Both the position numbers and the translations under genes were made by a program. From an uncultured Acidimicrobiales bacterium (GTDB lineage: Bacteria > Actinomycetota > Acidimicrobiia > Acidimicrobiales > DATKAS01): 64,000 nt of DNA. Under the pieces are notes generated by a model. That model saw only the letters and a list, made by a program, of their open reading frames with translations, made no database searches and was not told the DNA's origin. The stretch is from NCBI GenBank assembly GCA_963847855.1, contig CAWKBM010000007.1, positions 85,079 to 149,078 on the forward strand, read 5' to 3'. Positions 4,621-44,235 of the stretch are shown in pieces. The number at the start of each line of letters is the position of its first letter. The stretch's first letter is position 1.

Positions 4621-7600
4621 ATGACGTGCCCGTCATGCGGCGCACTCGCGCCTGCCGGCGCCAGGTTCTGCTCCGTTTGCGGGCACAGCCTGGTGGCGCG
4701 CTCTGATGAACGTCGGGTGGTCACGGTGCTTTTCGCCGACCTCGTGGGCTTCACAGGCCTTTCCGAGACCATGGATCCCGAGCAGCTGAAGAACCTGATC
4801 GACGACTGCTTCGAGTGCCTCGTGGCGGATGTCACTGCTTTCGGCGGACAGGTCGACAAGATCATCGGTGACGCGATCCTCGCCCTGTTCGGCGCGCCGA
4901 TCGCCCACGAAGACGATGGCGAGCGCGCCGTGCGCGCCGCCCTGCGCATGCAGCAGTCGATCGCCCAGCACATCGCGGGCATCGCGAACGGCATCGAGAT
5001 GCGGGTCGGCGTGAACACGGGTGAAGTCCTGGTGGGCGCCCTGCGCGCCGGCGGCGACTACACCGCGATGGGCGACGTCGTGAACACTGCGAACCGCCTG
5101 CAGTCCGTTGCAAAGCCCGGGCAGGTCCTGGTCGGGCCGGCGACGCACGCCGCCACGCATCAGGTCGTCCGCTACGACCACCTGGGCCCGGTGCAGGCCC
5201 GTGGACGTGAGGAGCCGGTCGAGGCCTGGATCGCAGTGGAGACGATCGCGCCCTCCGGGTCACCGACCCCGTCGGCTGCGCGCCCCGCTCGTCGGGCGCG
5301 CCACCGAGCTCGGGCTCATCTCGAGCAGCGTGGAGATGTCGGTGCAGCACAGTCGAGCGCAGCTGATCTTGCTCATCGGCGAGGCGGGGGTCGGCAAGAG
5401 CCGCCTCGCCGAAGAGGCGGCGTCGCTGGCCGAGGCGAACCACGAGGCCGCGGTGCTCGAAGGCCGATGTGTGCCGTACGGCGAGGCGAACATCTGGTGG
5501 CCGATCGGTGAAGCGCTGCGCGACGGGACCGGAGTGCATGCGGAGGACTCGGAGGACGTCGCCCGTCGTCGTTGCGTGGGCGCGGTCGCTGCGGTGCTCG
5601 AGCAACCCGCGACGGCAGACGAGGTCGCCCGCATCGCCGAGGGCCTCCTGTTCTACATGGGCTTCGCCACGCCGCTCGACGGGCTCGACCCGGCGAGAGC
5701 ACGCGAGGACGCGGCGCTCTCGTTGTTCGCGTTCACCGAGGCGTACCTCCGCGTGCGTCCTGTGGTCGTGGTCCTTTCCGACCTCCACTGGGCCGACGAC
5801 CTCGTGCTCGAGCTGCTCGACCGCATGCTTCGCGCGCTCGGGTCATTGCCCTTCGTCGTCGTGACGACGGCCCGTGTCGGTGAGGACTTCCGCTGGCGGC
5901 CTCAGGGAAGGCACAACACCGTCGCCATCAACCTCGACCCGCTCGATCGGGTCGCCGCGCGACAGCTGCTCGATTCCGTCGCCGAGGCGCGCATTCCCCG
6001 CCGCATCGCGGATCAGCTCCTCGACCGCAGCGGTGGCAACCCCTTCTTCCTCGAGGAGCTCGCGTCGCTCATCTGCGACACGGCCGACATCTCGGACGAC
6101 ATCCCCGACCTTCCCGACAACATCCGCGGGCTCGTGGCCGCCCGCCTCGACACCTTGTCGCCCGGTGAACGCGCGACGCTCGAGGACGCCGCGGTGCTCG
6201 GACGTTCCGGCCCGGTCAGCGCGCTTGCGTCGCTCGCCGAGGAACGCGTGCCGATCGACGCGCCCGCGAAGTACGACGACGACGGAAAGGGCGCGCTCGG
6301 CGGGCTCGTCGCCAAGGACCTGTTGGTGCTCGAGGGCGATCGGTGGACGTTCCGTTCCGAGTCGGTGCGCGAGGTTGCCTACAACACGCTCACCAAGGCG
6401 TCTCGTGCCAGACGGCATTCAGCGATCGCCGACATGTTCCAGAACGACGAGCTGATGGGCCGGGGAGAGCGCCTCGAGCAAGTAGCGGTGCATCTCGCCG
6501 CGGCGAGCGAGCTGGTGAGCGAGCTCGGCCCGATCCCTGGTGTGCCCGACGATGTGCGTTCAAGAGCAGCCGGATGGCTGGCGAAAGCCGCAAAGCGTGC
6601 GTACACGCACGACATGTCGGGCACCGCGCTACGGCTCTCCGACCGAGCGCTCTCGTTCCTCGATCCGGAGGACGAGGAGACGGCGAGTCCGCGCCGCCGG
6701 CTGCTCACGCTGCGGGCGTGGGCAAAGTCCGCGCTGCGCGACCTCCCCGGCGCGCGCATGGACGTGATGGCCGCGCTGTCCGACGCCGACCGCGCCGGCG
6801 ACCAGTCGGCACGCGCGCAGGCCATGAGCGTCCTCGGCCAGCTGCTCGAGCGCGAGGGTCACCTCGAGGAGTCGGCCGCCACGCTGTGGGACGCGATCGC
6901 GCTCTGGCGCGACCTCGGCCAGAAGGAAGGCCTCGCCGAGGCGTTGCGATACCTCGGGTTCACGAGCATCTTCCTGCGCACGTTCGAGGAGGGCGAGGCG
7001 GCCCTCGTCGAAGCGCGTGAGCTCTTCATCGAGCTCGGCGACAAGCGGGGCGAGGCCTGGGCGATTCAGTACCTGGCGTTCATGGCTTTCTCGCGAGGCG
7101 ATCTGGACGAGGCGAACCCGAGGCTCCAAGAGTCGTTGCGCATGTTCAGCGAGCTCGGTGACCAGTTCGGCATGGGCTGGTCACGCGGGCTGCTCGCGTG
7201 GGTTCGCTACAACGAGGGCAACTTCGAGGAGGCCGAGGCGCTCGCCGAGCTCGCCATCGGTGCTCGCGAGAGCGACAAGTGGGCGCACGGCATGATGCTG
7301 GTGCTGCTCGCCAACCTGCGGCTCTGGCGTGGGCACGCTCGGGCGGCGATCCCGCTCGCGAGCGAGGCCCGCGGCCTGTTCCACTCGATCGGCGATCACT
7401 ACGGCCGCGCGATGGCGTTGTCGGCGCTCGGTCGCGCACAGGCCGCGACGGGTGACGTCGTCGACGCCGAGAAGTCGATCGAGGAGGTGCTTGCGGCGAC
7501 CGGCGCAATCGCGTCAGAGAAGATGGGAGCGACGATCGCAGGCGCCACCTACCTCCATCTCGGAGAGGCGGATCGTGCGTTGTCCGCGTACCTGGCTGCA

Positions 7601-31513: not shown

Positions 31514-32293
31514 ATGCTCCGCGCTACGCTCCTGAAATCGATTTCCCGATCTCCTCCGAGCGGTCCAGGTCGTTCTGGCAGAACGGCTATCTGCAGGTCG
31601 ACGAGCAGGTCATGCCGCTCGACGAGCTGGCCTGGTTTCGCCGCGACATACGACGAGATCTTCGTGAACCCGAAGGTGTTCCGCCTCCACTTCGACGGCG
31701 AGCGCGACGACGGCACCAACGGCGTGATCGACCAGATCCTCGGTCCCGAGCTCACCGTGCCCGAGATCCTCGACACGACCTGGTTCGCGAACGCCAAGCA
31801 GCTCGCGTGCGCCTTGCTCGAGATCGACGAGTCCGAGATCCTCGACCACAGTGGCACCCACATGATCTTCAAGCCCGCGGGCGTGGGCCGTGACACGCCG
31901 TGGCACCAGGACGAGGCCTACTGGGAGCAGCCGAAGGTCACTGCGCACAGCCTCTCGGTGTGGACACCGCTCGACGACGTGACCGTCGACAGCGGCTGCA
32001 TGCAGTTCCTGCCCGGCTCACATCGCAGCGACATCCTCGGCCATCGCAACGTGGGTGTCGGGCAGCCTCTTCTGCTCGAGGAACCACCCGACCTCAGCAC
32101 GAGCGCCGCCTGCCCGATCATGGCAGGCGCGGCAACTGTGCATCACTGCCGCACTATCCACTACAGCGGCCCGAACTACAGCGAACGCCCACGACGGGCG
32201 ATCTCCGCGCTGATTCACGGCCCGGTCGTGCCACGCGACGAGCCGCTCGAACGCACCTGGCTGCCGCTCGCTCCGAAGTTCTTGAAGACGTAG
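31514..32293 (+). CDS. PhyH family dioxygenase, paralog 4 (N-terminal frame disrupted)
   Basis: TPWHQDEAYW and CMQFLPGSH are in the 31514 frame. The conserved N-terminus SFWQNGYLQVDEQVMPLDELAWFR is in another frame that has no canonical start. The frames switch at about 31635-31649. Confidence 0.75.
   Translation: MLRATLLKSISRSPPSGPGRSGRTAICRSTSRSCRSTSWPGFAATYDEIFVNPKVFRLHFDGERDDGTNGVIDQILGPELTVPEILDTTWFANAKQLACALLEIDESEILDHSGTHMIFKPAGVGRDTPWHQDEAYWEQPKVTAHSLSVWTPLDDVTVDSGCMQFLPGSHRSDILGHRNVGVGQPLLLEEPPDLSTSAACPIMAGAATVHHCRTIHYSGPNYSERPRRAISALIHGPVVPRDEPLERTWLPLAPKFLKT
31533..31546. promoter_or_regulatory. Putative LacI-family operator TGAAATCGATTTCC (perfect 12-bp palindrome core)
   Basis: GAAATCGATTTC at 31534-31545, about 25 nt from the lacI start codon. 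Confidence 0.55.
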
Positions 32294-32311: not shown

Positions 32312-32852
32312 ATGGTGCCCATGGCTGCCACGAGCGCCGCACAAGTCCACGCCGACGTCCTGTCCCTGTTCGACGAGGCCTGGCCGCGCTTCGCTTCGCG
32401 CCTCGACGGCCTCGAGCGGGATGAGTACCTCTGGGAGCCGGTGCCTGGCTGCTGGACGGTGCGCCAGACGCCGGACGGGGTGCTGGCCGATTGGGCGGAG
32501 TACGCCGACCCGGCTCCCGTCACGACGATTGCCTGGCGTCTGTGGCATGTGGCCGTCGATTGCCTGGACAGCTACTCGGCTCGCGTCTTCGACGCTCGTG
32601 GCACCGAGTTCGTCGATCAGCAATTCACTCTCGACGTCGACGAAGCCCTCACCGCGCTGGCTGCTTCGGGCGAGGTGTTTCGCTCGGGATTGGTGGAGCG
32701 GTCACCCGAGTCGCTGTACGACCTGCTCGGTCCGGCGTGGGGTCCGTATCACTCCTCGACGTTCCTCGCGCTCGATGTTGCACGCGCTCGACGAGGTGAT
32801 CCACCACGCGGCGGAGATCGCGCTGCTCCGCGACCTGTACCCCTCGCGCTAG
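32312..32852 (+). CDS. DinB family protein, apparent frameshift
   Basis: WTVRQTPDG...TTIAWRLWHV. The C-terminal MLHALDEVIHHAAEIALLRDLY-stop is in the 32421 frame. The switch is at about 32771-32780. Confidence 0.75.
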
Positions 32853-35671
32853 TCCCGGCGAGCGAGGATTGCCAGGGTGAGCTCGACGCGCGTCGAGAGG
32901 GCGAGCTTGCGGTAGGCGGATGACACGTGCGACTCGACGGTGCGCCGCGAGAGGTAGAGGCGCTGCGCGATCTCGACGTTGCTGAGCCCGTCGGCGAGCA
33001 GCTCGAGCACGAGCCGTTCGCTCTGCGAGATCGCCTCCCACCCGAAACGGGGACGTGCCGGCGTGGCGCGTTGCCTGGCGGTTGCCTTGGCGCTTCTCGT
33101 GGCGGCCGCGTCAGCTGCCCACGCATCCGCGCCCATTGCGGCATAGATGGATGACGCCTCGAGCGCAGCCTCGTCCGCGTCCGCCGGGGCTCCTACCTCC
33201 CGCAACACGTGGGCAGCATCGAGCAACGCGTCGGCGAGCAGTGGCCGGCGGCTCGTCATCCGGGCCAGGCCGACGGCCTTCAGCGAGCGCTCGGGATCAG
33301 CGTCGACCAAGCCCCGGGCGCGCTCGGCGTCGACGCGGAACGACCGCAGGTCGGTCCGTTCTGCCGCGTCCTCGATGTCGGCCGCGACCGTCTTGGCGCG
33401 TGCTCGATCTCCGGTGGCCAGCGCGAGTCTCACGACTCGTGGCCCGATCCACTGGCGACCGGACTGCATGTCGAACGCGCCGAACGTCTCCCAGACCTCG
33501 CCGACCGATCGAGATGCGGCGTCGAGATCTCCCTCGGCTTCCGCGATCAGCGACTTCGCCATCATCACGTGGTCCCACCCGAGCTGCGCTCGCGTCGGCG
33601 ACAGCTCGCGCTCGGCAAGCTCAGACTCGACGCGTGCAGTCGCGACATCGCCGCGGGCGACAGCGATCTGAGCGAGGAATGAGTGGCACCAGACCATCAC
33701 CCCGAACGCGTCTGCGTTCTCGGACGAGTCGAGGGCCGCGAGGGCGAATGCAGTCGCATCGCCGAGGTCGCCGACCCGGAGCGCACCGAACGATGCGAGC
33801 GCGTCATATGCCGGTACCGCCCACGCCGAGCCTGTCCGGTAGGCAACCTCCCGCCCGCGGCGCACGGCTCGGTCGAGTTCGTCGAAGCCGTCGGTTTCGA
33901 GGAACACGATCCCCGCGGTGAACCACGGCTGATACTGATGTGCGGCGACGCAGCTGGGGTGGTCGGCGAGCTCGACCGCGAGCCGGGCGTGCCGCAACGC
34001 TTCGGCGGTCTCGAGCGGCAGCAGCTCGAGGAAGCAGCAGAGGCTGTGCACTGCGGCCTGCGTCGTGAGGTCACCGAGCGCCTCACCCTCTCGCAGCGCG
34101 TCCATGGCCGCCGCCCATGCGCCACTTCGGTCAAGGGCGAGGAACCTCCCGAACGCGAGCTCCGCGAGCAGCCGAGCCCGTGCGACCGGTTCGTCGGTCA
34201 GGCCGGCGACGGTCGCGACGTGGAGGACGGCGTCGCCCGGCCTCCCGTCGACCACCGCAGCCAGCGCGAGCTCACGGTGCACCTCGGCTCGGACGTGCGG
34301 CGACAGCTCTCGATCGCGGAGCAGTGAGGCGCCGAGTACCTCGGCGTCCGCCGCACGACCCGTGCCGGCGAGCGCTCGGACGCGTGCCGTGGTGATCTCG
34401 ATCGACGGCTCCGTCGCGAGCGATGCCGCGACCTCCGCCAACCTCAGCGAGGTGCCCGGCGATCTGCGGTTGATCGAGTTGGCGACGTCGCACAGCCACT
34501 CGATCGCCTGTTGATCGCCCGGCTGGGCACCGAGCGCGAAGTGCTCGGCGACGTCGAGGGGCGAGGCGCCGAGTGCGATCAGCGTCCGCGCCGCGTCGAC
34601 GTGCATCGCTGCGAGCGCGCTCGGCGCGATCGTGTCGAGCACCGCGGTGCGATAGAGCTCGTGGCGAAACCCGTAGCCCGTCTCGTCCGGTACGAGGATG
34701 CCGGCGACCTCGGCGCGGTCGAGCACGGGCACCAGGTCGAGTGCGCGTCGGCCGGTGACTGCGGCGAGCCGCTCGACGCTCGACGTCGATCCGAGCACCG
34801 CCGCGGCCTGCGCGAGCGTGAACGCCTCACCATCGAGCTCGGCGATCCGCGACGCGAGCACCCCGCTCGGTCGTAGGGAGGCTCCGGCGGGCAGCTCGAC
34901 TTGCGACTCGGTCGAGACGAGCTGCTGGTCGAGTGCCTCGGCGAGCGCATGGATCATCAGGGGGCTGCCCTTCGTTGCCTTGATCGCCTCGGTGAAGCGG
35001 GGTCCGATCGCACCGCCCACGAGTCGGCTCGCGAGGTGGATCGATTCGTCGGTCGAGAGCGGCGAAAGCGTGATCCGAGGGAGCTCGTCCTCACGCGTCT
35101 GAGTGAGGAAGCGATGGAGGTCGGTGGCTGGCGCGGGAGGGCGACTGGTGAGGACGAGCCCGAGGGGCGAGGTTGCGATGCGGTCGAGCACGAGGCCGAG
35201 GAAGCGGAGCGTGCCGCCGTCGGCCCAATGCAGATCCTCGATGACGAGCACGACCGGCGTGGTGAGGCACTCGGCCTCGAGCGTCTCGAGGAGTCGGTCG
35301 GCGACTGCGAACTCGGCCGTCGATCCTGCGCCTGCCTCGAGCAGCGCTCGGGTGCCGGCGGGTTCCCCGCGGGTGGTGTCGAGCGATGGGGTCACGTCGA
35401 GCGCCTCGTGAATCGCGCCGAAGGGGCGCTCGATCGTGAAGCCGTGTGCGGATCCGATGCGGATGGCGACCTGCGACGCGCCTCTCCGGCGGCTCGTGTC
35501 GTTCGTGCCCCCGATGACCTCGCCGATCAACCGGGACTTGCCGCTGCCGGCATCTCCGACGACGAGCACCGCGGAGCCGCGGCCGGCGGCGGCGCCATCG
35601 ACGAGCGCGTGGAGCGCGAGCGACTCGTCGACCCGCCCCACGAACGGCGCCTCGCGGCCGCTCCGGGTCAT
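32849..35671 (-). CDS. STAND-type AAA ATPase / LuxR-family transcriptional regulator (940 aa)
   Basis: PFVGRVDE...VLVVGDAGSGKSRL P-loop, VLVIEDLHWAD Walker B, a long helical-repeat sensor region, and a C-terminal GerE HTH SERLVLELLADGLSNVEIAQRLYLSRRTVESHV. Confidence 0.9.
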   Translation of the reverse strand: MTRSGREAPFVGRVDESLALHALVDGAAAGRGSAVLVVGDAGSGKSRLIGEVIGGTNDTSRRRGASQVAIRIGSAHGFTIERPFGAIHEALDVTPSLDTTRGEPAGTRALLEAGAGSTAEFAVADRLLETLEAECLTTPVVLVIEDLHWADGGTLRFLGLVLDRIATSPLGLVLTSRPPAPATDLHRFLTQTREDELPRITLSPLSTDESIHLASRLVGGAIGPRFTEAIKATKGSPLMIHALAEALDQQLVSTESQVELPAGASLRPSGVLASRIAELDGEAFTLAQAAAVLGSTSSVERLAAVTGRRALDLVPVLDRAEVAGILVPDETGYGFRHELYRTAVLDTIAPSALAAMHVDAARTLIALGASPLDVAEHFALGAQPGDQQAIEWLCDVANSINRRSPGTSLRLAEVAASLATEPSIEITTARVRALAGTGRAADAEVLGASLLRDRELSPHVRAEVHRELALAAVVDGRPGDAVLHVATVAGLTDEPVARARLLAELAFGRFLALDRSGAWAAAMDALREGEALGDLTTQAAVHSLCCFLELLPLETAEALRHARLAVELADHPSCVAAHQYQPWFTAGIVFLETDGFDELDRAVRRGREVAYRTGSAWAVPAYDALASFGALRVGDLGDATAFALAALDSSENADAFGVMVWCHSFLAQIAVARGDVATARVESELAERELSPTRAQLGWDHVMMAKSLIAEAEGDLDAASRSVGEVWETFGAFDMQSGRQWIGPRVVRLALATGDRARAKTVAADIEDAAERTDLRSFRVDAERARGLVDADPERSLKAVGLARMTSRRPLLADALLDAAHVLREVGAPADADEAALEASSIYAAMGADAWAADAAATRSAKATARQRATPARPRFGWEAISQSERLVLELLADGLSNVEIAQRLYLSRRTVESHVSSAYRKLALSTRVELTLAILARRD

Positions 35672-35706
35672 CGGCGGACTGTATATGGCCACGCCAGCGT
35701 CGAGTT

Positions 35707-35720
35707 CCGTGTGCACACGG
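35707..35720. promoter_or_regulatory. Perfect 14-bp palindrome CCGTGTGCACACGG in a divergent promoter region
   Basis: Lies in the 84-nt gap between the luxR-STAND start (35671) and the hsp70-like start (35756). Confidence 0.4.
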
Positions 35721-35755
35721 ACGACATCGCTGCGTGCGCGCGGGTCCATGCTGAC

Positions 35756-37504
35756 ATGGAGTCCGACTCGTCGAGCCGCGGCTACGTGCTGGGTGTCGAC
35801 CTCGGCACGACGTTCACTGCTACCGCACTGTTCCGTGACGGGCATGCCGAGGTCGTGCAGCTCAGCCAACGAAGCGCGGCCGCTCCGTCCGTCGTCTTTC
35901 TGAAGCCTGACGAGTCGATGCTCACGGGCGACGCGGCGGTGCGTCGCGGCGTTGCCGAGCCCGCTCGGTTGGGCCGTGAGTTCAAGCGGCGAGTGGGAGA
36001 CCCTGCTCCCGTCCTCCTCGGTGGAGTGCCGATCGCGCCGGAGCACCTCATGGCCCGTCTGCTGCGGGCCACGATCGACGCGGTGAGCGAGCGTGAGGGC
36101 GGCGCACCCGACACGGTGGTGGTCTCCCATCCGGCGAATTGGGGTCCCTACAAGCTCGAGCTGCTCGACCAGACCTGTCGGATGGCGGGTGTGAGCGACG
36201 CACTGCGCATCCCTGAGCCCGAAGCCGCGGCAGTGCACTACGCGTCGCTCGCTCGCCTCGAAGTCGGGTCGGTGGTCGCGGTCTACGACCTCGGCGGCGG
36301 GACGTTCGACGCGGCGATCCTGCGCAAGACGGCCGACGGGTTCTCGGTGCTCGGCCAGCCCGAGGGGATCGAGAGGCTCGGTGGCATCGACTTCGACGAA
36401 GCCGTCGTCGCCCATGTGCGCGAGGCGTGTGCGGACGCCATCGCGGGGCTCGACTTCGACGATCCGTCGACGACCGCGCTGCTCGCCCGCCTGCGGCAGG
36501 ACTGCGTCGAGGCGAAGGAGGCCCTCTCCTTGGACACCGAGACGTCGGTGCCCGTGGTGCTCCCAGGGCTACGGACCGAAGTACGGCTGACACGCGGCGA
36601 GCTCGAATCCATGATCCGAGTGCCGCTCGTCGAGACGGTCGCCGCGGTCGAGGCGCGCGATGGCGAGCGCACAGGTCGACGCCGACGATCTGACGAGCGT
36701 GCTGCTTGTCGGTGGCTCGTCGCGCATCCCCATGGTCGCCGAGCTGATCACCGCGGAGCTCGGACGACCGGTCGCGGTGGACTCTGACCCGAAGCACGTG
36801 GTCGCCCTCGGCGCGGCGCGGTGGGGGGCGATGCGTCGAGTCGAGGAGCCCGCGTTGGTCGCCGCGTCTGCGGCCGTCGCCGCGCCCCCGCGCGACCGGA
36901 GCGACCGCCTTCGATGTCTCCTCCGCCGGCACCGCCGCCGCTCCCGGCACCGAGTCCGGCCCCGCCCGCGGACGTCCCCCCGGCTGCGGTTTCGGAGACG
37001 GGTCCGGATCACGGGCCACGGCGGAAGAGGCGGTGGATCCCGATCGCCGCGGGCGCGGCGGCGGTCGCGGTCGCGGCGATCGCGGCGGTGGTCGTCTTCG
37101 CAGGCGGAGGCGACGGCGGAACCGGTGGCGCGGCGGGCGCCGCCGACACGCAGCAGACAACGGGTCAGATCACCCCGTGCCCGCCCGCGGGGCAGCCCGC
37201 GGTGTGCATCACCGCGGTCGAGCGGAACGGCAACGCGCTGCAGGTCGCGTTCACCACCCACGACGTGACCCTCGTCAGCGACCCGAGCGCCGAGGAGCTC
37301 ACCGCGACGTTCTTCCTCGGCTCGATCGACAGCACGGCGAGCACCGGTGTCGCGTTGCGTCAGTGGGGTGCGAGCTCGCCGTTCGAACAGCAGTACTCCG
37401 CGGAAGAGCTCGACGGCGCGAGTGCCGTGTGCGTGCTCGTCGGAAACGGCGCCGGTCAGATCGCGCCGGGAACCGGCAACTGCGCCGAGCTTCCGAAGGC
37501 CTGA
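35756..37504 (+). CDS. Membrane-anchored Hsp70/actin-fold ATPase with extracytoplasmic Cys-containing C-terminal domain, two apparent frameshifts
   Basis: VLGVDLGTTFTA, VSHPANW, VAVYDLGGGTFDAAIL, and LLVGGSSRIPMV (the last in the 36660 frame). The 36821 frame then carries a Pro-rich linker, RRKRRWIPIAAGAAAVAVAAIAAVVVFAG (TM helix) and a 4-Cys domain. Confidence 0.8.
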
Positions 37505-38967
37505 CCAGAGGTCGCCAGCATCCCCTCGTAGGACCGGACCATCACGCTCGCCGCGTCGCTCAGCGCGCGCGATGCGAGTGGGTGCTCCGCCCGGCGGCGC
37601 CACCGCTCGACCGATCGGGTGATCGCGACCGCCACGTCCTGATCGGAGGCATCGTCGGGGAGGTCGAGGCGAGACCGGGTCTCGAGGCCGGAACCTTCGA
37701 CGATGCGGTCGATCTCTGCGAGCTCGTTGTCGCCAATGTCGAGCGCGCCGTTTCGAGCGGCGATCAGGAGGCGGAGCTCCGCCAGCTCGTGTGCGCCTGC
37801 TTCGACCATCTCGATGCCGCGTGTCACGTCGTCACGTGCGACGGGCCACTCGCGCGTGATCCGCTCGAGCCCGGCGAGCACCGCCTGAGCCTTGAGCAAC
37901 CCGCTGCGCGCTGCGAAGCGAGTCGCGAGGAGCATGCGGAGCTCGTCGATGCCGCTCACGCGGCGTAGCTCGGCTGCGAGCGCCGGCGCGGTCGGCGTGG
38001 TGCGGTCCTGGATGAGCACCCGCGCGAGCCGCACGCCGAAGAGGCCGAGGCGATCGAGCAGGTGGGCGCGATCCTCCGGGGAGATGTCGATCGCGCTCGG
38101 TCTCGTCGCGAGCCGATCGCAGGAGAGCAGCAGGGCCTCGGCGTCGTCCTCCGGTGCGGTGGCGAGCGTGGTGAGCAGAGCGAAGTCGCGCTCGGTCAGG
38201 AGTGACGCACCGAAGCCGAGCAGCCCGGCGACCGGCACGGTCGTCTGGCACAGCCGACGGATCTGGGGATCGGCTCCATACCGCCGCGCGACGTGCTCCG
38301 CGCTGCGCATGGCCGAGATGCGAGCCGCGCCGATCTCGTCCGCTCGGGATACCACACCGATCGTGTTCACGGGGCTCGGCCGGCCGGCGTCGTCGTCGTG
38401 AAAGGCCTCGAGGAAGCGCACGTCGTGCGCGTGCATGTGCCGAGTCAGGTAGATCACCGCGTCGGCAGCTGACGGCTGATCGCCCGGCAGCAGGAACTCT
38501 CGGCCGCGCGGATCGAGCGTGCCATCGAGCGTGCCGAGACCCGGTGTGTCGATGAGCGTCATCCCGCGCAGGAGCGGCGACGGCCACTCGACGACGACTC
38601 GATCGACGTCGGCATCGTGGATGTCGCCGAGATCGACGTCGATCGAGCTCTCGCTGCGGTGTAACGACACGCGCTGCAGCTGTCCTCGCACGGAAGCCTT
38701 TGCTTCGTAGGACCGACCGTGGACGTACCACGTGACGTGACGTGTGCAGTCGCCGGCGTCGACCGCGGCGAGGCCATGTCCGACGAGGGCGTTGAGCAGC
38801 GTCGACTTTCCGGCCTTCACCCTCCCTGCGACCGCGACGCGCAGCGGCTCGTCGAAGCGAGCCCTCAAGCCGGCGATCGCGGGCGCGGCTTGCGGATGGC
38901 CCTCGTACGTGTCGGCCGCGAGGTCGAGCAGTGCCGAGACCCGCCCGGGCAGTCGCACGCCGGTCAT
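37456..38967 (-). CDS. Dynamin-family GTPase, IniC-like (503 aa)
   Basis: VAVAGRVKAGKSTLLNAL (G1), LIDTPGLG (G3), VVSRADE (G4-like). Its ATG overlaps the upstream stop (ATGA at 38964-38967). Confidence 0.85.
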   Translation of the reverse strand: MTGVRLPGRVSALLDLAADTYEGHPQAAPAIAGLRARFDEPLRVAVAGRVKAGKSTLLNALVGHGLAAVDAGDCTRHVTWYVHGRSYEAKASVRGQLQRVSLHRSESSIDVDLGDIHDADVDRVVVEWPSPLLRGMTLIDTPGLGTLDGTLDPRGREFLLPGDQPSAADAVIYLTRHMHAHDVRFLEAFHDDDAGRPSPVNTIGVVSRADEIGAARISAMRSAEHVARRYGADPQIRRLCQTTVPVAGLLGFGASLLTERDFALLTTLATAPEDDAEALLLSCDRLATRPSAIDISPEDRAHLLDRLGLFGVRLARVLIQDRTTPTAPALAAELRRVSGIDELRMLLATRFAARSGLLKAQAVLAGLERITREWPVARDDVTRGIEMVEAGAHELAELRLLIAARNGALDIGDNELAEIDRIVEGSGLETRSRLDLPDDASDQDVAVAITRSVERWRRRAEHPLASRALSDAASVMVRSYEGMLATSGQAFGSSAQLPVPGAI

Positions 38968-40821
38968 GCGGGTGGTCCGTCGATCGGTGGTCCATCAACC
39001 GCGGCGGAGATCGCGTCGTGCGCCTTCGCTGCGAGGTCTCGGATGGCGGTCACGTGCCCGAGCGCGTGTGACACCTCGGCGAGTCGGTCCGCAGCCTGCT
39101 GGTCGGCGAGCGCCGCGCCCCGCTTGGCCGCGTCGTACGACGCGGCGGCCGAGCGCAGCATCTCGTCGGCGCGGGCAGTGAAGTGGTCGCGCAGGCTGCG
39201 TTGCGTGCGCCGCACGGTGTCACGGGTCTCCTTCGACAGCGCGCCGGCGACCTCGTCCGCGTATTGGCGCACGGCCGCCTTCGCCATTGCCTGCCGCTGC
39301 GCGAGCTGGCGCTTGGCGTCCTCCCGGATGCCCCGGTAGCCCACGGCCGCGCCGGCCGCCAGCGCGACGGGCGCGGCCAGGGTGAGCCCGAGCACGCCCG
39401 TGACGAAGCCAGTGAGCACCGCGCCGCTGTATGACGTGCGCACCGCTCCCATCGCGCGCGCGCCGACTCCCGCCCTCTTCATCTCCTTCACCGTGATCGG
39501 GGAGTCGCCAGGGGGAGGGGACTCACCCGCGGCGCTGGGGATGAGGTCATCGACCGCCGCTTCCTCCTCGGAGAACACGGCCTCGACGCGCCGCGCGGCA
39601 GGCGACGAGCCGGTCGTGCACCGCGAGCTGGTAGTCGCTGGCGGCAGTCGTGATCAGCCGTCGGAGCTCGGGCTCGAACTCGACCCATACGGTGGCGGGA
39701 TCGGCCTGATCGAGTGCTTCCTCGGCCGCAGTGATCAAGCCACGGAACCGACTCCGAAGATCGTCTCCGAGGTCGGTGGTGATGTCCCCCATCGCGTCAC
39801 CCAGGACTTGCTGCCATCGGCTCGCCGCGCCGCGCAGCCGCGTGGCCTCAGCCGTCGCCGCTTCGAGCTGCGCGGCCCGCTCGGCATGCCCCGCGGGGTC
39901 TCGCAACGTCGCCGCCTCTTGCTCGAGCGGAGTGGCCACGTGAGCACATGCCTCCAGAGCGGCTGCGACAACTCCCAGCGCGGTGCGATCCCGTGTCTCG
40001 CCAGCGACGCGTTGCAGCCAGACACTCACCTCGGGGAGGCGCGACTCGACCGCGAGCTCCCGGTCCTGGGACGCCCGCGCTCGCCGTGCCAGCTCTGCGG
40101 AGATGCCGATCACCGGCACGTCGAGCGCGCGGAAGGTCTGGTCGTCGAGTGCCACGACGACCTCCCAGGTGCGGTGGATGTCGATCTTCGTCTTGGTGAC
40201 GAGGACGGCGTCGAGACGGTTGCGGATCGTCTCCACGTGCTCGGCCTCCGAGGCGGTGACGGGCTGCCCCGCATCCGACACGACGACCGCTGCGTCGCAG
40301 GTCGGGAGCACCGCGGCGAGCGCCATCGCCGCCTGTGGTGTCGCCATGCCCCCGGTCCCGGGCATGTCGATCAGTGTGAGCCCGCTGCGGAGCAGCGTCG
40401 AGGGCAGGGCGACGTCGACAGCGGTGAGACCGGCGACCGTGACTTGCTGCCCGTCCTCTCGGATCCACGCCGGAAGGTCTTCGAACTCGAGCGGCTTCCG
40501 CTCTGTGAGATCGGCTGTCTCGCTCGTGAAGATCGCGGCGGCCGTGGACTCGGGCTCGTAGCGCACGATCGTCGGGATCGCGGTCGCGACGTCGTCATCG
40601 ACGGGGCAGACGGGCTGCCCACACAGCGCGTTGACCAGGCTGCTCTTGCCTTGCTTGAACTCGCCCGTGACGATGACTCGGGCGGGGCTCGCGAGCTGAT
40701 CGAGCAGCGCGCGCACCGCGCTTGCCAAGTCCGCGCGTCGCCGTTCGTCGCAAAGGTCCGCGACGAGCTCGCCGATCTGCGCGGCAGCGTCGCGGTGGGT
40801 GAGACCGTCGCTCTCGGCCAT
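38964..40821 (-). CDS. Dynamin-family GTPase with hydrophobic hairpin, IniA-like; split into two ORFs (39547..40869 and 38964..39578)
   Basis: VIVTGEFKQGKSSLVNAL (G1), LIDMPGTGG (G3), VTKTKID (G4). The second ORF carries GAVLTGFVTGVLGLTLAAPVALAAGAAVGY and helical stalk-like sequence. Combined length is about 620-635 aa. Alternative starts at 40830, 40857 and 40869. Confidence 0.75.
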
Positions 40822-40902
40822 GGGTCTCATCGTGAGGCAGCGGGGCAGCTCGGTCATCCGTGCGCGCACGGATGACCCAATGGCGCGCCGGGCGCATCGT
40901 CA

Positions 40903-40930
40903 GACGAACAGCGTGTCGACGAACAGCGTG
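40903..40930. promoter_or_regulatory. Tandem direct repeat GACGAACAGCGTG x2 (15-bp period)
   Basis: Perfect 13-mers at 40903-40915 and 40918-40930. They sit about 20 nt upstream of the GTG at 40950 (RBS GAAGGAGAG) and in the divergent region toward the IniA-like gene. Confidence 0.45.
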
Positions 40931-40949
40931 CTGATGAAGGAGAGTCGCC

Positions 40950-42800
40950 GTGGCCGCCAAGAAGACCATCGCCCCCGCACCCGTGCCCAGCCGCACGTCG
41001 AGCGGATCGAAGACGGTGAAGAAGGACAACACCATCACCGCGACCCGCACGGACGCCGACGCCACCCGCGAACAGGATCCGGGCGACGCCGGCATCCACG
41101 ACGACACCGTTGATTCGGTGCTCGCGGGCATCGCCACGAGCCGCAACGACGCGTTGATCCGCGCGACGGGCGGTCAGTCCTCGCCTGACGACGACCCGAC
41201 GGGTGGTCGCGGGAGCACCGGCAAGAGCTCGGTCGAGCAGTCCTCTGACGCCGGGCCGGAGGATGGCGGGCAAACGACCACGACGCGGCTTCCCGCCGGC
41301 GGGGTCGTGCAGACCGACAAGGACGAAGGCGTCAGGAGCAAGGGCCACGCGGTCAAGGACGACGGCAGTGAGATCACCCGCATCGGCAACCTGATCGGGA
41401 CTGGCGGGCCCTCGGGTCCGGGACGTGACGCGCTCCAGCAGGCGCTCGCGGAGCAGGATGCCGCGGCGACACCTGGCACCGCGGTCGACTCCAAGGGCAA
41501 CAAGGTCAGCCAGACGCCGAGCGGTGCAACGAAGACGGTCAGTCCCGACGGCACGGTCACCATCTCCTCGGGCAACATCCGCAGCGAGAGGAAGGCCGAT
41601 GGAACGTTGACCGTCGTCGACGCGGTCACCAACACCCAGACGACCACGAGACCCGACGGCTCGTCGGAGACGCGTGACGCGACCACGAACACCGTGATCG
41701 ACACGACCCCGAAGCTGCAGGATCCGGCGCCCGCTCAGGGCCCCCCGGGTTCGAGCGAGCAGGAGTCACCGGACGACGATGGACCTGGCGAGCCGGAAGA
41801 CAGCACGCCCGCGGACCCCGACGACGACGGGCAGAGCGTCGAGCCCGACCCCAACGGGCAGAGCACCGAGCCCGCAGATGACCCCAACGGTCAGAGCCTC
41901 GTGCCGCAAGACGAGGTCACCGGTGGTGCCGACGATCCAGAAGGCGACCCGGACGGCCAGAGCATCGATCCCGAGCTCGATCCCGAAGGGCAGAGCATCG
42001 ATCCCGAGCTCGACCCCGAAGGGCAGAGCGTCGAGCCTGAGCCCGATCCGGGCACGAGCGCGGATCCTGCCGACGACCCAAATGGTCAGTCGGTCGAGCC
42101 CGATCCCGAGCCCGATCCCGCGGACGACCCCAACGGACAGAGCACCGAGCCCGAGCCCGAAGACGACGATGCCAACGGGCAGAGCGTCGAGCCCGAGCCG
42201 GAGCCCGAGGAGGGTCAGAGCTCCGATGCGGAGCAGAGCGTGTCGCAGACCGGTGACCCGGGCGGTGGCGATCCCGGCGATCCCGACAGCGGAGGCTCCT
42301 CGCTTCCTCCCGACATCTCGCAGGCGATCAAGTCCGACATCGCCAGGCTGCGCGGCGCCAAGCCGGCGACGGGGGACGGCGTGACCGATCCCGGTCCTGA
42401 GGACACCGGCGACGAGGTCGACCGCAGCGTGGCTGTCGTTCCCGACAAGTTCAACCAGCTCCTCGGCGGTGACAACTTCAATCGTGACGGCGACAACGTC
42501 GTCCACACCGGCAACGCGGAGGTGCCGACCGGCCCGCATGCCGGAAACGGCTTCACCGACCCCGGGCCCGACGATGACCAACCCCCTCAGTTCTCGGGGC
42601 CCGAGGAGGATCCCTTCGACCAGGGCCCTCAGCTCAAGCCCATCGAGTCGAGGACGACGACGAACGACGACTCCGACGACGATGATGACGACGACGGCGC
42701 CACGATCGGCTCGCCCCTCTTCGTGTCGACCGCGGTACGCCAGTTCCAGTTCGATCACGTCCCGGCGATCGCCGACGACGATGACGACCCCGACGACTGA
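40950..42800 (+). CDS. Polyacidic, low-complexity repeat protein (616 aa)
   Basis: High-GC3 ORF. By hand count, about 137 D/E versus about 38 K/R. There are ten GQS-centred repeats and a run of nine consecutive D (residues 575-583, DDDDDDDDD) near the C-terminus. No obvious signal peptide or TM segment. Confidence 0.7.
   Translation: MAAKKTIAPAPVPSRTSSGSKTVKKDNTITATRTDADATREQDPGDAGIHDDTVDSVLAGIATSRNDALIRATGGQSSPDDDPTGGRGSTGKSSVEQSSDAGPEDGGQTTTTRLPAGGVVQTDKDEGVRSKGHAVKDDGSEITRIGNLIGTGGPSGPGRDALQQALAEQDAAATPGTAVDSKGNKVSQTPSGATKTVSPDGTVTISSGNIRSERKADGTLTVVDAVTNTQTTTRPDGSSETRDATTNTVIDTTPKLQDPAPAQGPPGSSEQESPDDDGPGEPEDSTPADPDDDGQSVEPDPNGQSTEPADDPNGQSLVPQDEVTGGADDPEGDPDGQSIDPELDPEGQSIDPELDPEGQSVEPEPDPGTSADPADDPNGQSVEPDPEPDPADDPNGQSTEPEPEDDDANGQSVEPEPEPEEGQSSDAEQSVSQTGDPGGGDPGDPDSGGSSLPPDISQAIKSDIARLRGAKPATGDGVTDPGPEDTGDEVDRSVAVVPDKFNQLLGGDNFNRDGDNVVHTGNAEVPTGPHAGNGFTDPGPDDDQPPQFSGPEEDPFDQGPQLKPIESRTTTNDDSDDDDDDDGATIGSPLFVSTAVRQFQFDHVPAIADDDDDPDD
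41814..42221 (+). repeat. In-frame degenerate tandem repeats encoding D-P-(N/E/D)-G-Q-S-(V/I/T)-(E/D)-P
   Basis: Ten GQS units. Two adjacent 33-nt units (GQSIDPELDPE) are nearly identical. Confidence 0.85.
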
Positions 42801-42828
42801 CCCGACTCACACGCCGTACCGTTGACTC

Positions 42829-44235
42829 GTGGCCGACGCCCGAGTTGCCGAGCTCCTCGCTGAGGTCGGCCTCCCGGGCAACGCTGCCGACGGCGTCACG
42901 ATCACGGGAAGCGAGCCGATCTACGCGAGCCCGTTTCCGGTCGCGTCGTCGGCGGCCGTCGCGCTCGGCGCTGCTGCCGCGGCTGCTGCGCTGATCTGGC
43001 GCGACAAGACGGGCGAGGAGCAGACGGTCACGGTCGACACTCGCCGAGCCGGCGTCGCACTTCTGAGCTTCGTCTTCCAACAGCTGCTCGATGGCCCCAC
43101 GCCGCAGCGGGTGGCCGACAACCCGTTGATCGCGCTTTACGAGTGCCGTGACGGACGGTGGGTTCACTTGCACGGCGCATTCCCGCGCCTCGCCGACCCG
43201 ACGAGGCGAGTTCTCGGGATCGGCGAGGATGCCGACGCAGCCTCGGTTGCCGCCGCGGTGGCGAAGTGGGAGGCGCAAGCGCTCGAGGACGCGCTCGCCG
43301 AAGCGCGGATGTGCGGCGCGATGGTGCGCACGCGAGACGAGTGGGCCGCGCATCCGCAGGGCCAGGCCCTCGGTGCGTTCGCGCGGGTCGAGATCGAGAA
43401 GATCGGTGATTCGTCGCCCGAACCCGCGGGCGGGAGGGCCCGCCCGCTCGATCGTGTGCGAGTCCTCGACCTCACTCGCATCCTTGCCGGACCGACCAAC
43501 GGACGCACGCTCGCCGAGCACGGCGCGGACGTGCTGCTCGTGAACTCGCCGAAGCTCGACAACGTGGCGCCCTTCGTGATGGACACGAGTCACGGCAAGC
43601 GCTCGACGTTCCTCGATCTCGACGACTCCGAGGACAAGACGCGCCTGCTCGACCTGGTCGCGTCCGCCGATGTGTTCGCGCAGGGCTACCGCGGTGGAGC
43701 GATGGAACATCGCGGGCTCGGCCCCGAGGAGCTGGCGACCCGACGTCCCGGCCTCGTGTACGTCACGATGAACTGCTACGGCGACACGGGACCCTGGCGG
43801 CAACGACCCGGGTGGGAGCAGCTGGCGCAGACGGTGAGCGGCATCGCCGACGTTCAGGGAGCCATCGGTCCTCCGGTGCTCATCCCCGCGGCCGCGTGCG
43901 ACTACACGACGGGATACCTCGCCGCGCTCGGCACGATCGCGGCGCTCTGGCGCCGGAGCCGCGAGGGCGGCAGCTACCACGTGCGGGCCTCGCTCTGTCA
44001 GACCGCGATGTGGTTCGCTCGCGAGCCGCGCGTCGATCGCGACAAGGCGACCGGGTTCGGCGACGTCGCAGACCTCCTCGTCACGACCGACACGCCGTTC
44101 GGCCGTCTGCGCCATCTCGGTCCCGTCGCGCAGCTGAGCGACACGCCCTCTCACTGGTCATTGCCGACGACACCGCTCGGCGCGCACGCTCCCGAGTGGT
44201 TGCCCGCGAACTCATCGCCGCCTGCGGGCAAGTAA
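42829..44235 (+). CDS. CoA-transferase family III (CaiB/BaiF) protein
   Basis: VRVLDLTRILAGPTNGRTLAEHGADVL motif. Confidence 0.9.
   Translation: MADARVAELLAEVGLPGNAADGVTITGSEPIYASPFPVASSAAVALGAAAAAAALIWRDKTGEEQTVTVDTRRAGVALLSFVFQQLLDGPTPQRVADNPLIALYECRDGRWVHLHGAFPRLADPTRRVLGIGEDADAASVAAAVAKWEAQALEDALAEARMCGAMVRTRDEWAAHPQGQALGAFARVEIEKIGDSSPEPAGGRARPLDRVRVLDLTRILAGPTNGRTLAEHGADVLLVNSPKLDNVAPFVMDTSHGKRSTFLDLDDSEDKTRLLDLVASADVFAQGYRGGAMEHRGLGPEELATRRPGLVYVTMNCYGDTGPWRQRPGWEQLAQTVSGIADVQGAIGPPVLIPAAACDYTTGYLAALGTIAALWRRSREGGSYHVRASLCQTAMWFAREPRVDRDKATGFGDVADLLVTTDTPFGRLRHLGPVAQLSDTPSHWSLPTTPLGAHAPEWLPANSSPPAGK

Follow-up and report, generated by a model that had tools for sequence, protein, structure and literature searches.

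A gene for a polyacidic protein of 616 amino acids (aa), found in an uncultured Acidimicrobiales bacterium, belongs to a family that takes the place of iniB beside a pair of Ini-type dynamin genes. It lies in a 64,000-nucleotide (nt) stretch of contig CAWKBM010000007.1 (assembly GCA_963847855.1, positions 85,079 to 149,078 of the forward strand), hereafter called the window, from whose first letter all positions are counted. In mycobacteria, the response to cell-wall drugs and the release of vesicles are the work of the dynamins IniA and IniC. The iniB gene, the first of its operon, is still without known function (PMC10240201). What is new here, as far as sequence comparison can tell, is a module of Ini-type dynamins in which an undescribed, non-homologous family of polyacidic proteins with predicted disorder occupies the IniB slot. 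The coordinates of the genes, protein segments and sites discussed below are collected in Table 1.

The open reading frame (ORF) at 40950-42800 on the plus strand is genuinely coding, and purifying selection acts on it. Its GC content follows the codon-phase pattern of actinobacteria, at 0.85-0.89 for third codon positions (GC3) and lowest for second positions (GC2). Against the ortholog P0002 in the sister species G007 (88% identical), the ratio of nonsynonymous to synonymous substitution rates (dN/dS, omega) is 0.19 overall and 0.17-0.20 in four of four segments (0.17 in the GQS repeats described below). Every indel between the two genes is a multiple of three, and the substitutions at codon positions 1, 2 and 3 number 48, 29 and 146. 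In the alignment the Shine-Dalgarno sequence and the start codons GTG-GCC-GCS-AAG-AAR are kept in G007, G010, G001 and one contig from ENA. The original prediction, which had called the ORF coding from its GC3 bias, is thus borne out. At 70% GC long shadow ORFs arise often, and one on the opposite strand (41766-42758) reaches 330 aa; the acidic ORF could in principle be a by-product of high GC, or this antisense ORF the true gene. Such a reading is scarcely credible. Conservation of the antisense ORF had been named beforehand as a refutation; its omega is about 1.5, compared with 0.19 for the sense frame, and the refutation fails. GC2 is lowest in the sense phase, and distant protein homologs lie in the sense frame. 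The only other frame with a low omega (0.24), an antisense one, has its wobble position in common with the sense frame and is interrupted by stops; dN/dS was for this reason rejected as lone proof of the frame.

The composition of the protein is extreme. A recount gives exactly the 137 Asp and Glu and 38 Lys and Arg that had been estimated by hand, with a calculated pI of about 4.05, and the tract described as free of basic residues extends over residues 256-460 (205 residues). Cys, Trp and Tyr are absent from the whole protein. Its net charge of -99 is the most negative of all 2863 GC3-filtered ORFs with 150 aa or more in the genome (4.03 Mb), and its run without Lys or Arg (K/R) is the second-longest; the first 40 residues carry a net charge of +5. 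Since the highest 19-residue Kyte-Doolittle window reaches only 0.7, neither a signal peptide nor a transmembrane (TM) helix nor any hydrophobic segment is present by this measure, as the first reading of the sequence had it, and the homologs are likewise without export signals. The DDDDDPDD C-terminus is confirmed. The supposed run of nine consecutive Asp residues (575-583) has to be corrected: the longest run is seven (576-582), with Asp at nine of the ten positions 573-582.

By prediction, the protein is probably largely disordered, as had been supposed. An AlphaFold2 model built from a 7-sequence alignment has a mean predicted local distance difference test score (pLDDT) of 42.7, and 514 of the 616 residues (83%) fall below 50. 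Strands are predicted at residues 177-251, where the hairpins at 194-251 (pLDDT 70-81) form the sole confidently folded part; a helix at 454-468 reaches about 60 and residues 1-100 stay at 30-38. In the charge-hydropathy plot all four segments lie on the disordered side of the Uversky boundary.

The ten GQS-centred units first described are confirmed and lie at residues 294-422, and one further lone GQS stands at residue 75. With Tandem Repeats Finder, a 33-nt period emerges at 41945-42046 (3.1 copies, 86% match), and the two most similar units are identical at 29 of 33 nt. Their near-identity, which had been read as a sign of recent expansion, therefore stands as a similarity, and the recent expansion does not: ten units are present in the window's genome, G007, G010 and the ENA contig and eleven in G001, and their positions match. 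The array is old and stable, because 10-11 units sit at corresponding positions across five relatives. Distant family members (e.g. P0009 and P0017) hold a single [DE]GQS[ST] element ahead of the C-terminal domain, and for this reason the ten units look like an ancient amplification of that one element.

The acidic protein is the founding example of a small, previously undescribed family. A word-indexed search of 5.8 billion proteins returned three relatives only; a profile of the C-terminal 186 residues recovered 11 proteins from 1.84 billion cluster representatives and another search added two. The family numbers about 15 sequences in 1.84 billion. A search with residues 100-260 gave nothing beyond two close relatives. 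A four-sequence alignment led among genome contigs only to the three known loci in metagenome-assembled genomes (MAGs) and among metagenome contigs to one near relative. Among the genomes sampled (401 from the order, 400 from the phylum), the family is seen only in the genus of the window and in one other genus of the order; the profile search of the 400 genomes of the phylum found no match outside the window's own genome. No model of Pfam, NCBIfam or PADLOC covers the protein (zero families matched in PADLOC), and a sequence search of the PDB gave only a chance mucin match (E 0.07).

Full-length members (362-623 aa) align on one plan: a variable N-terminus, PDGT-type beta-hairpin repeats, a low-complexity spacer, a conserved C-terminal domain and an acidic tail. 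The spacer differs by lineage and consists of PEPE, of SGSG or, in the window, of DPxGQSxEP units. Across the family the C-terminal domain carries the motifs LPxxIQQxIDADLARLRA, TGDGxTDP, LLGGD, TDPGPDxD and SGPExDPFD; the window protein shows within residues 452-616 the helix LPxxIxxxIxxDIxxLR, the other four motifs and the acidic tail. Its domain comprises the helix 454-468 (LPPDISQAIKSDIARLR), two G-x-G-x-TDPGP elements, LLGGD, SGPEEDPFD, the poly-Asp run 576-582 and the tail. In the homologs P0010, P0013, P0014 and P0015 the PDGT-type repeats match the Pfam domain Tcp10_C (PF07202) with 44-56 bits, above its gathering cut-off of 36. Literature searches on bacterial Tcp10_C proteins found nothing relevant.

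Four further genes stand with the acidic gene: a regulator of the STAND and LuxR/GerE type, similar to the IniR described earlier (PMC5760070), a membrane-anchored Hsp70-like ATPase and two dynamin-like proteins (DLP1 and DLP2). The intact 613-aa ortholog of DLP1 in G007 matches IniA of M. smegmatis (6J72) over its full length with E 1.2e-74. Intact versions of the Hsp70-like protein have a linker rich in Pro, a single TM helix and, on the outer side, a domain that contains Cys; literature searches on operons that combine dynamin and Hsp70 genes found nothing relevant. The whole block (32849-42800) forms an accessory island some 10 kb long, because in G008 and G005, which belong to the same genus, its flanks (the orthologs of 31514-32293 and 42829-44235) adjoin each other. 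A module of 5-6 genes that includes the acidic gene occurs at the same site in G007 and in another, mutually shared context in G010 and G001.

Distant homologs place the gene more precisely. P0014 (with its tandem paralog P0017), P0011 and P0015 are encoded directly upstream of the orthologous dynamins and co-directional with them; the Hsp70-like gene then follows in all three contigs, the short P0015 contig ending inside it, and the LuxR-STAND gene is seen in L032, where the contig is long enough. This is exactly the position of iniB, and in the genus of the window the gene is inverted. The original claim that the acidic gene sits where iniB would relative to iniA is thereby supported: the distant homologs lie upstream of the IniA-like/IniC-like pair in the same direction, and the acidic gene has its putative operator in common with the rest of the module.

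The IniB slot of other Acidimicrobiales was compared at twelve further dynamin loci; IniC-like genes occur in 57 of the 401 genomes of the order. Ten of these loci also have an Hsp70-like gene, mostly adjacent to the dynamin genes and divergent from them. In six genera the IniA-like gene is immediately preceded by between one and three tandem copies of a gene whose product carries the IniB N-terminal domain (IniB_NTERM, NF038175, E 4e-12 to 9e-5), and all of these proteins are polyacidic and K/R-poor (Asp plus Glu 0.17-0.33; Lys plus Arg 0.00-0.06, one 0.10). The acidic protein had been called the compositional opposite of IniB; this holds for the Gly-rich mycobacterial protein and must be limited to it, because the IniB_NTERM proteins in the same slot of Acidimicrobiales are equally polyacidic and K/R-poor.

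No trace of IniB ancestry was detected in the acidic protein. The NF038175 domain (about 49 residues) gave no match in it at E<=0.01 or at E<=1, and NF038176 (Rv0340 family IniB-related protein) gave none either. A local hidden Markov model of Acidimicrobiales IniB N-termini hit nothing in the window's genome or in the related loci, and a genome-wide search with NF038175 was without a match, but equally silent in control genomes. An IniB_NTERM gene was not found in any module that carries the acidic family, and hhalign gives the two families a probability of 0.04%, that is, no profile-profile similarity. Non-orthologous replacement is the simplest reading, with two unrelated polyanionic low-complexity families in the same position and, putatively, the same regulon.

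The common regulon is suggested by palindromes in the gaps of the module. A perfect 26-bp palindrome lies in the divergent gap between dynamin and acidic gene, a second copy of its core lies in the gap between regulator and Hsp70-like gene, and the consensus across both gaps reads TCCGTGCGCGCACGGA. Fully palindromic CCGTG-N4-CACGG sites occur just twice in the genome, both within the module, and both are conserved in relatives (the 26-bp palindrome in four). The LuxR-type regulator presumably binds these putative operators. The palindrome stands about 85 bp from the start of the acidic gene in the window's genome, instead of about 70 bp as in relatives, because of a 15-bp duplication, which is private to this genome and could have arisen recently or through faulty assembly. 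In the distant lineage (L032/L033) another palindrome, GGTGA-NN-TCACC, stands 73-74 bp upstream of each family gene, and the gap of the module on the regulator side contains it too. G065 has just two copies of the 14-mer TCCGTGAGAACACG: one precedes a family paralog by about 70 bp, and the other precedes the Hsp70-like gene of the module by about 75 bp. As the family paralogs of G065 lie 850 kb from its dynamin module, the putative regulatory link outlasts the loss of physical linkage. Two more CCGTGAGAACACGG sites in the window's genome (G000 C3:270240 and C4:236594), with the spacer of the G065 operator, were set aside, no module-related gene adjoining them.

Table 1. Features of the window treated in the text, with position, strand and basis or remark
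Feature	Position	Strand	Basis or remark
Regulator, STAND (AAA_16) plus LuxR/GerE, IniR-like	32849..35671 (start provisional)	-	Pfam AAA_16, GerE
Second operator-core copy, CCGTGTGCACACGG	35707..35720	.	Gap between regulator and Hsp70-like gene
Membrane-anchored Hsp70-like ATPase	35756..37504	+	NCBIfam DnaK/HscA nucleotide-binding domain; frame broken
IniC-like dynamin (DLP2), 503 aa	37456..38967	-	Pfam Dynamin_N; weak IniA match
IniA-like dynamin (DLP1), split into two overlapping ORFs	38964..40869	-	Pfam Dynamin_N
Putative operator, perfect 26-bp palindrome GGTCATCCGTGCGCGCACGGATGACC	40852..40877	.	Core CCGTGCGCGCACGG at 40858-40871; divergent gap between dynamin and acidic gene
Two perfect 13-bp direct repeats (15-bp duplication)	40903..40930	+	Single copy in G007, G010, G001 and the ENA contig
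Strong Shine-Dalgarno sequence GAAGGAGAG	40936..40944	+	5 nt ahead of the GTG start; read from the sequence
Gene for the 616-aa polyacidic protein	40950..42800	+	GTG start, stop codon included; ORF call, GC3 phasing, dN/dS, homologs
Basic N-terminus (MAAKK...) and low-confidence region, residues 1-100	40950..41249	+	Poorly conserved outside the genus
Conserved N-terminal motif block RLPAGGVV..DEGV..RIGNLIGTGGP..ALQQALAEQDA, residues 101-170	41250..41459	+	Kept in P0003 and P0016
Thr-rich PDGT beta-hairpin repeats, probably of degenerate Tcp10_C/G-box type, residues 177-251	41478..41702	+	AlphaFold2, Pfam
Ten DP-x-GQS-x-EP acidic units, residues 288-430	41811..42239	+	Within the K/R-free tract 256-460
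Family-defining C-terminal domain, residues 431-616	42240..42797	+	Alignments and profile search

Taken together, these data make it reasonably probable that the acidic protein serves in the cytoplasm as a polyanionic and largely disordered accessory to a membrane-stress module with Ini-type dynamins. Under envelope stress, the IniR-like regulator would turn on the acidic gene together with the dynamins. The protein would stay in the cytoplasm, given that it has no export signal, and could dock on a partner from the module by means of its conserved C-terminal motifs and beta-sheet. The Hsp70-like protein offers a candidate docking site in its Pro-rich juxtamembrane linker, by analogy only with the CPAP G-box, which binds a Pro-rich peptide of STIL. 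As an electrostatic or entropic spacer, the K/R-free acidic tract might adjust how the dynamins assemble on the anionic membrane, and the protein would in this way be a functional replacement for IniB.

The same polyanionic character could also be that of a decoy or brake, in which the K/R-free tract imitates the surface of anionic lipid (or nucleic acid) and prevents the basic membrane-binding paddles of the dynamins from reaching the membrane before a signal releases them. The most extreme net charge of the genome, the 205 residues without Lys or Arg, the equal acidity of unrelated families in the same slot and the putative co-regulation with the dynamins through a common operator would all suit such a protein, and this evidence does not separate inhibition from scaffolding. 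However, the conserved C-terminal motifs and the beta-repeats point to specific docking and not to bulk charge alone, and an inhibitor expressed from the operator of its own targets is possible but not the simplest design; we regard the decoy as rather unlikely. Still less probable is an extracytoplasmic role, in which the protein would leave the cell by an unrecognised export route or in dynamin-made vesicles and would bind divalent cations or coat the envelope. Asp-rich repeats are typical cation binders. Mycobacterial IniB has been reported as vesicle cargo and is predicted to be a Gly-rich cell-wall protein (PMC10240201, PMC7350357). Against export stand the missing signal peptide, TM helix and hydrophobic segment, the lack of Cys and the homologs, in which export signals are likewise missing.

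Several observations weigh against the proposed accessory role, and some of them would rather suit a passenger, that is, a family whose function is unrelated to dynamins and which merely tends to be their neighbour in a mobile island. Both in the window and elsewhere in its genus, the acidic gene is adjacent to the dynamins but divergent from them, across an 80-nt gap. In G065, a distance of 850 kb separates the dynamin module from the two tandem paralogs, which are found between sufB and sufD. A polyacidic protein in the slot is not obligatory, because five of the twelve loci have no acidic gene there and the G065 module has just a 101-aa acidic ORF. Yet a mere passenger is improbable, marginally more so than an exported protein: in every other context recovered the family adjoins the dynamin pair, across protein identities of about 25-30% and an inversion, and putative operators are shared with the module in three lineages, the unlinked genes of G065 included. 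Against the accessory role there is also the low score of the PDGT-type repeats in the window's own protein, which reach 17.1 bits with Tcp10_C (E 0.0044), under the cut-off; they are probably a degenerate version of the Tcp10_C/G-box, since the homologs score well above it. Foldseek, run on the low-confidence model, gave as its top match the TCP10 domain of CPAP (4bxr_A), which at E 0.47 is not significant. The rarity of the family also leaves few sequences for the conservation statistics, and several of these are close kin; nanopore frameshifts affect several of the assemblies used.

The relatives come from a single long-read project on soil; they are MAGs of uncultured Acidimicrobiales, and their isolate names follow the pattern MFDxxxxx.bin. 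The copies in G010 and G001 and the database proteins P0003 and P0004 look frameshifted, which produces Arg-rich stretches. Their reading as true 'basic' variants or as pseudogenes was rejected in favour of nanopore assembly errors, because amino acid similarity persists although the frame switches more than ten times within 1.8 kb and because each GQS unit is still rich in Asp, Glu and Pro in its local frame. In the window, the splitting of the IniA-like dynamin, which is a single ORF of 613 aa in G007, is most likely a nanopore indel error as well, and the frame of the Hsp70-like gene is broken in the same manner.

Some further observations concern the surroundings of the module and its counterparts. 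Between the stop of the acidic gene and an operon of CoA-transferase, ECF-sigma and VOC genes (42800-42829) there are only 28 nt and no terminator-like hairpin, and insertion of the island may therefore permit read-through into this operon. Elsewhere in the genome of the window (G000 C9:85652-90823, L076), a second, paralogous dynamin pair with an Hsp70-like gene, at about 41% identity, has an IniB slot without an acidic gene. The G065 locus with the tandem paralogs (L041, G065:C1:2831000-2850900) has them on the opposite strand, and its sufB carries an intein with a LAGLIDADG homing endonuclease. At the IniB_NTERM loci L068, L069, L073, L075, L079 and L072, several proteins weakly match models of NHLP-type leaders of ribosomally synthesised and post-translationally modified peptides (TIGR04509, E 1.7e-5), and many end in an acidic stretch and a short hydrophobic tip (DFDIGSF, GIDIL). 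In L072 (G246, 4836-6629) an IniB_NTERM protein with a long YGKPEDGYKEPEPE repeat array overlaps the start of the IniA-like gene, a further lineage-specific low-complexity expansion in the IniB slot.

It is conceivable, although we would for now rather doubt it, that the IniB slot is defined by a physical property and not by ancestry: at least two unrelated families would fill it, both of them, in Acidimicrobiales, long disordered K/R-depleted polyanions. Extreme acidity, the lack of Lys and Arg and disorder are all that the acidic family and the local true IniB share, and this may be the property that matters. If so, the polyanion would be a working part of the dynamin machine for membrane repair or vesiculation, for example an electrostatic regulator on anionic lipid, and the function of IniB would become approachable through this property. 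The module is compact, and its regulator, operator, two dynamins, membrane Hsp70-like ATPase and polyanion could be rebuilt in a laboratory host as a five-gene unit. New to the databases are the conserved C-terminal domain and a bacterial family of proteins with G-box-like repeats.

Among the closest known systems is mycobacterial IniB (Rv0341, iniBAC), like the acidic protein a low-complexity protein encoded next to or upstream of an IniA/IniC pair under an IniR-type STAND/LuxR regulator; its Acidimicrobiales counterparts with IniB_NTERM share the polyacidic, K/R-poor composition too. Unlike IniB, the acidic protein is without the IniB N-terminal domain, is acidic and rich in Pro and Thr instead of Gly, has beta-hairpin repeats and a C-terminal domain of its own, and is transcribed divergently from the dynamins in the genus of the window. 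With the Tcp10_C/G-box of CPAP/SAS-4 (PF07202) the family has in common PDGT-type repeats predicted as beta-hairpins, and four homologs pass the cut-off; the window repeats differ in their score of 17 bits only, in a fold match of E 0.47 and in their bacterial context, and a centriolar function is not implied. The C-terminal tip of the single-stranded DNA-binding protein SSB and the DNA mimics Ocr and ArdA resemble the acidic protein in their extreme negative charge and in an acidic tail beside a short hydrophobic motif. No sequence or fold relation to them was found, SSB matches in Foldseek being not significant, and the context is a dynamin module and not replication or anti-restriction. Finally, the neighbouring dynamins weakly match the LeoA and LeoBC models of the dynamin-type anti-phage system Eleos/LeoABC in PADLOC; the acidic protein, however, matches no defence model, and DLP1 is far closer to IniA (E 1e-74).

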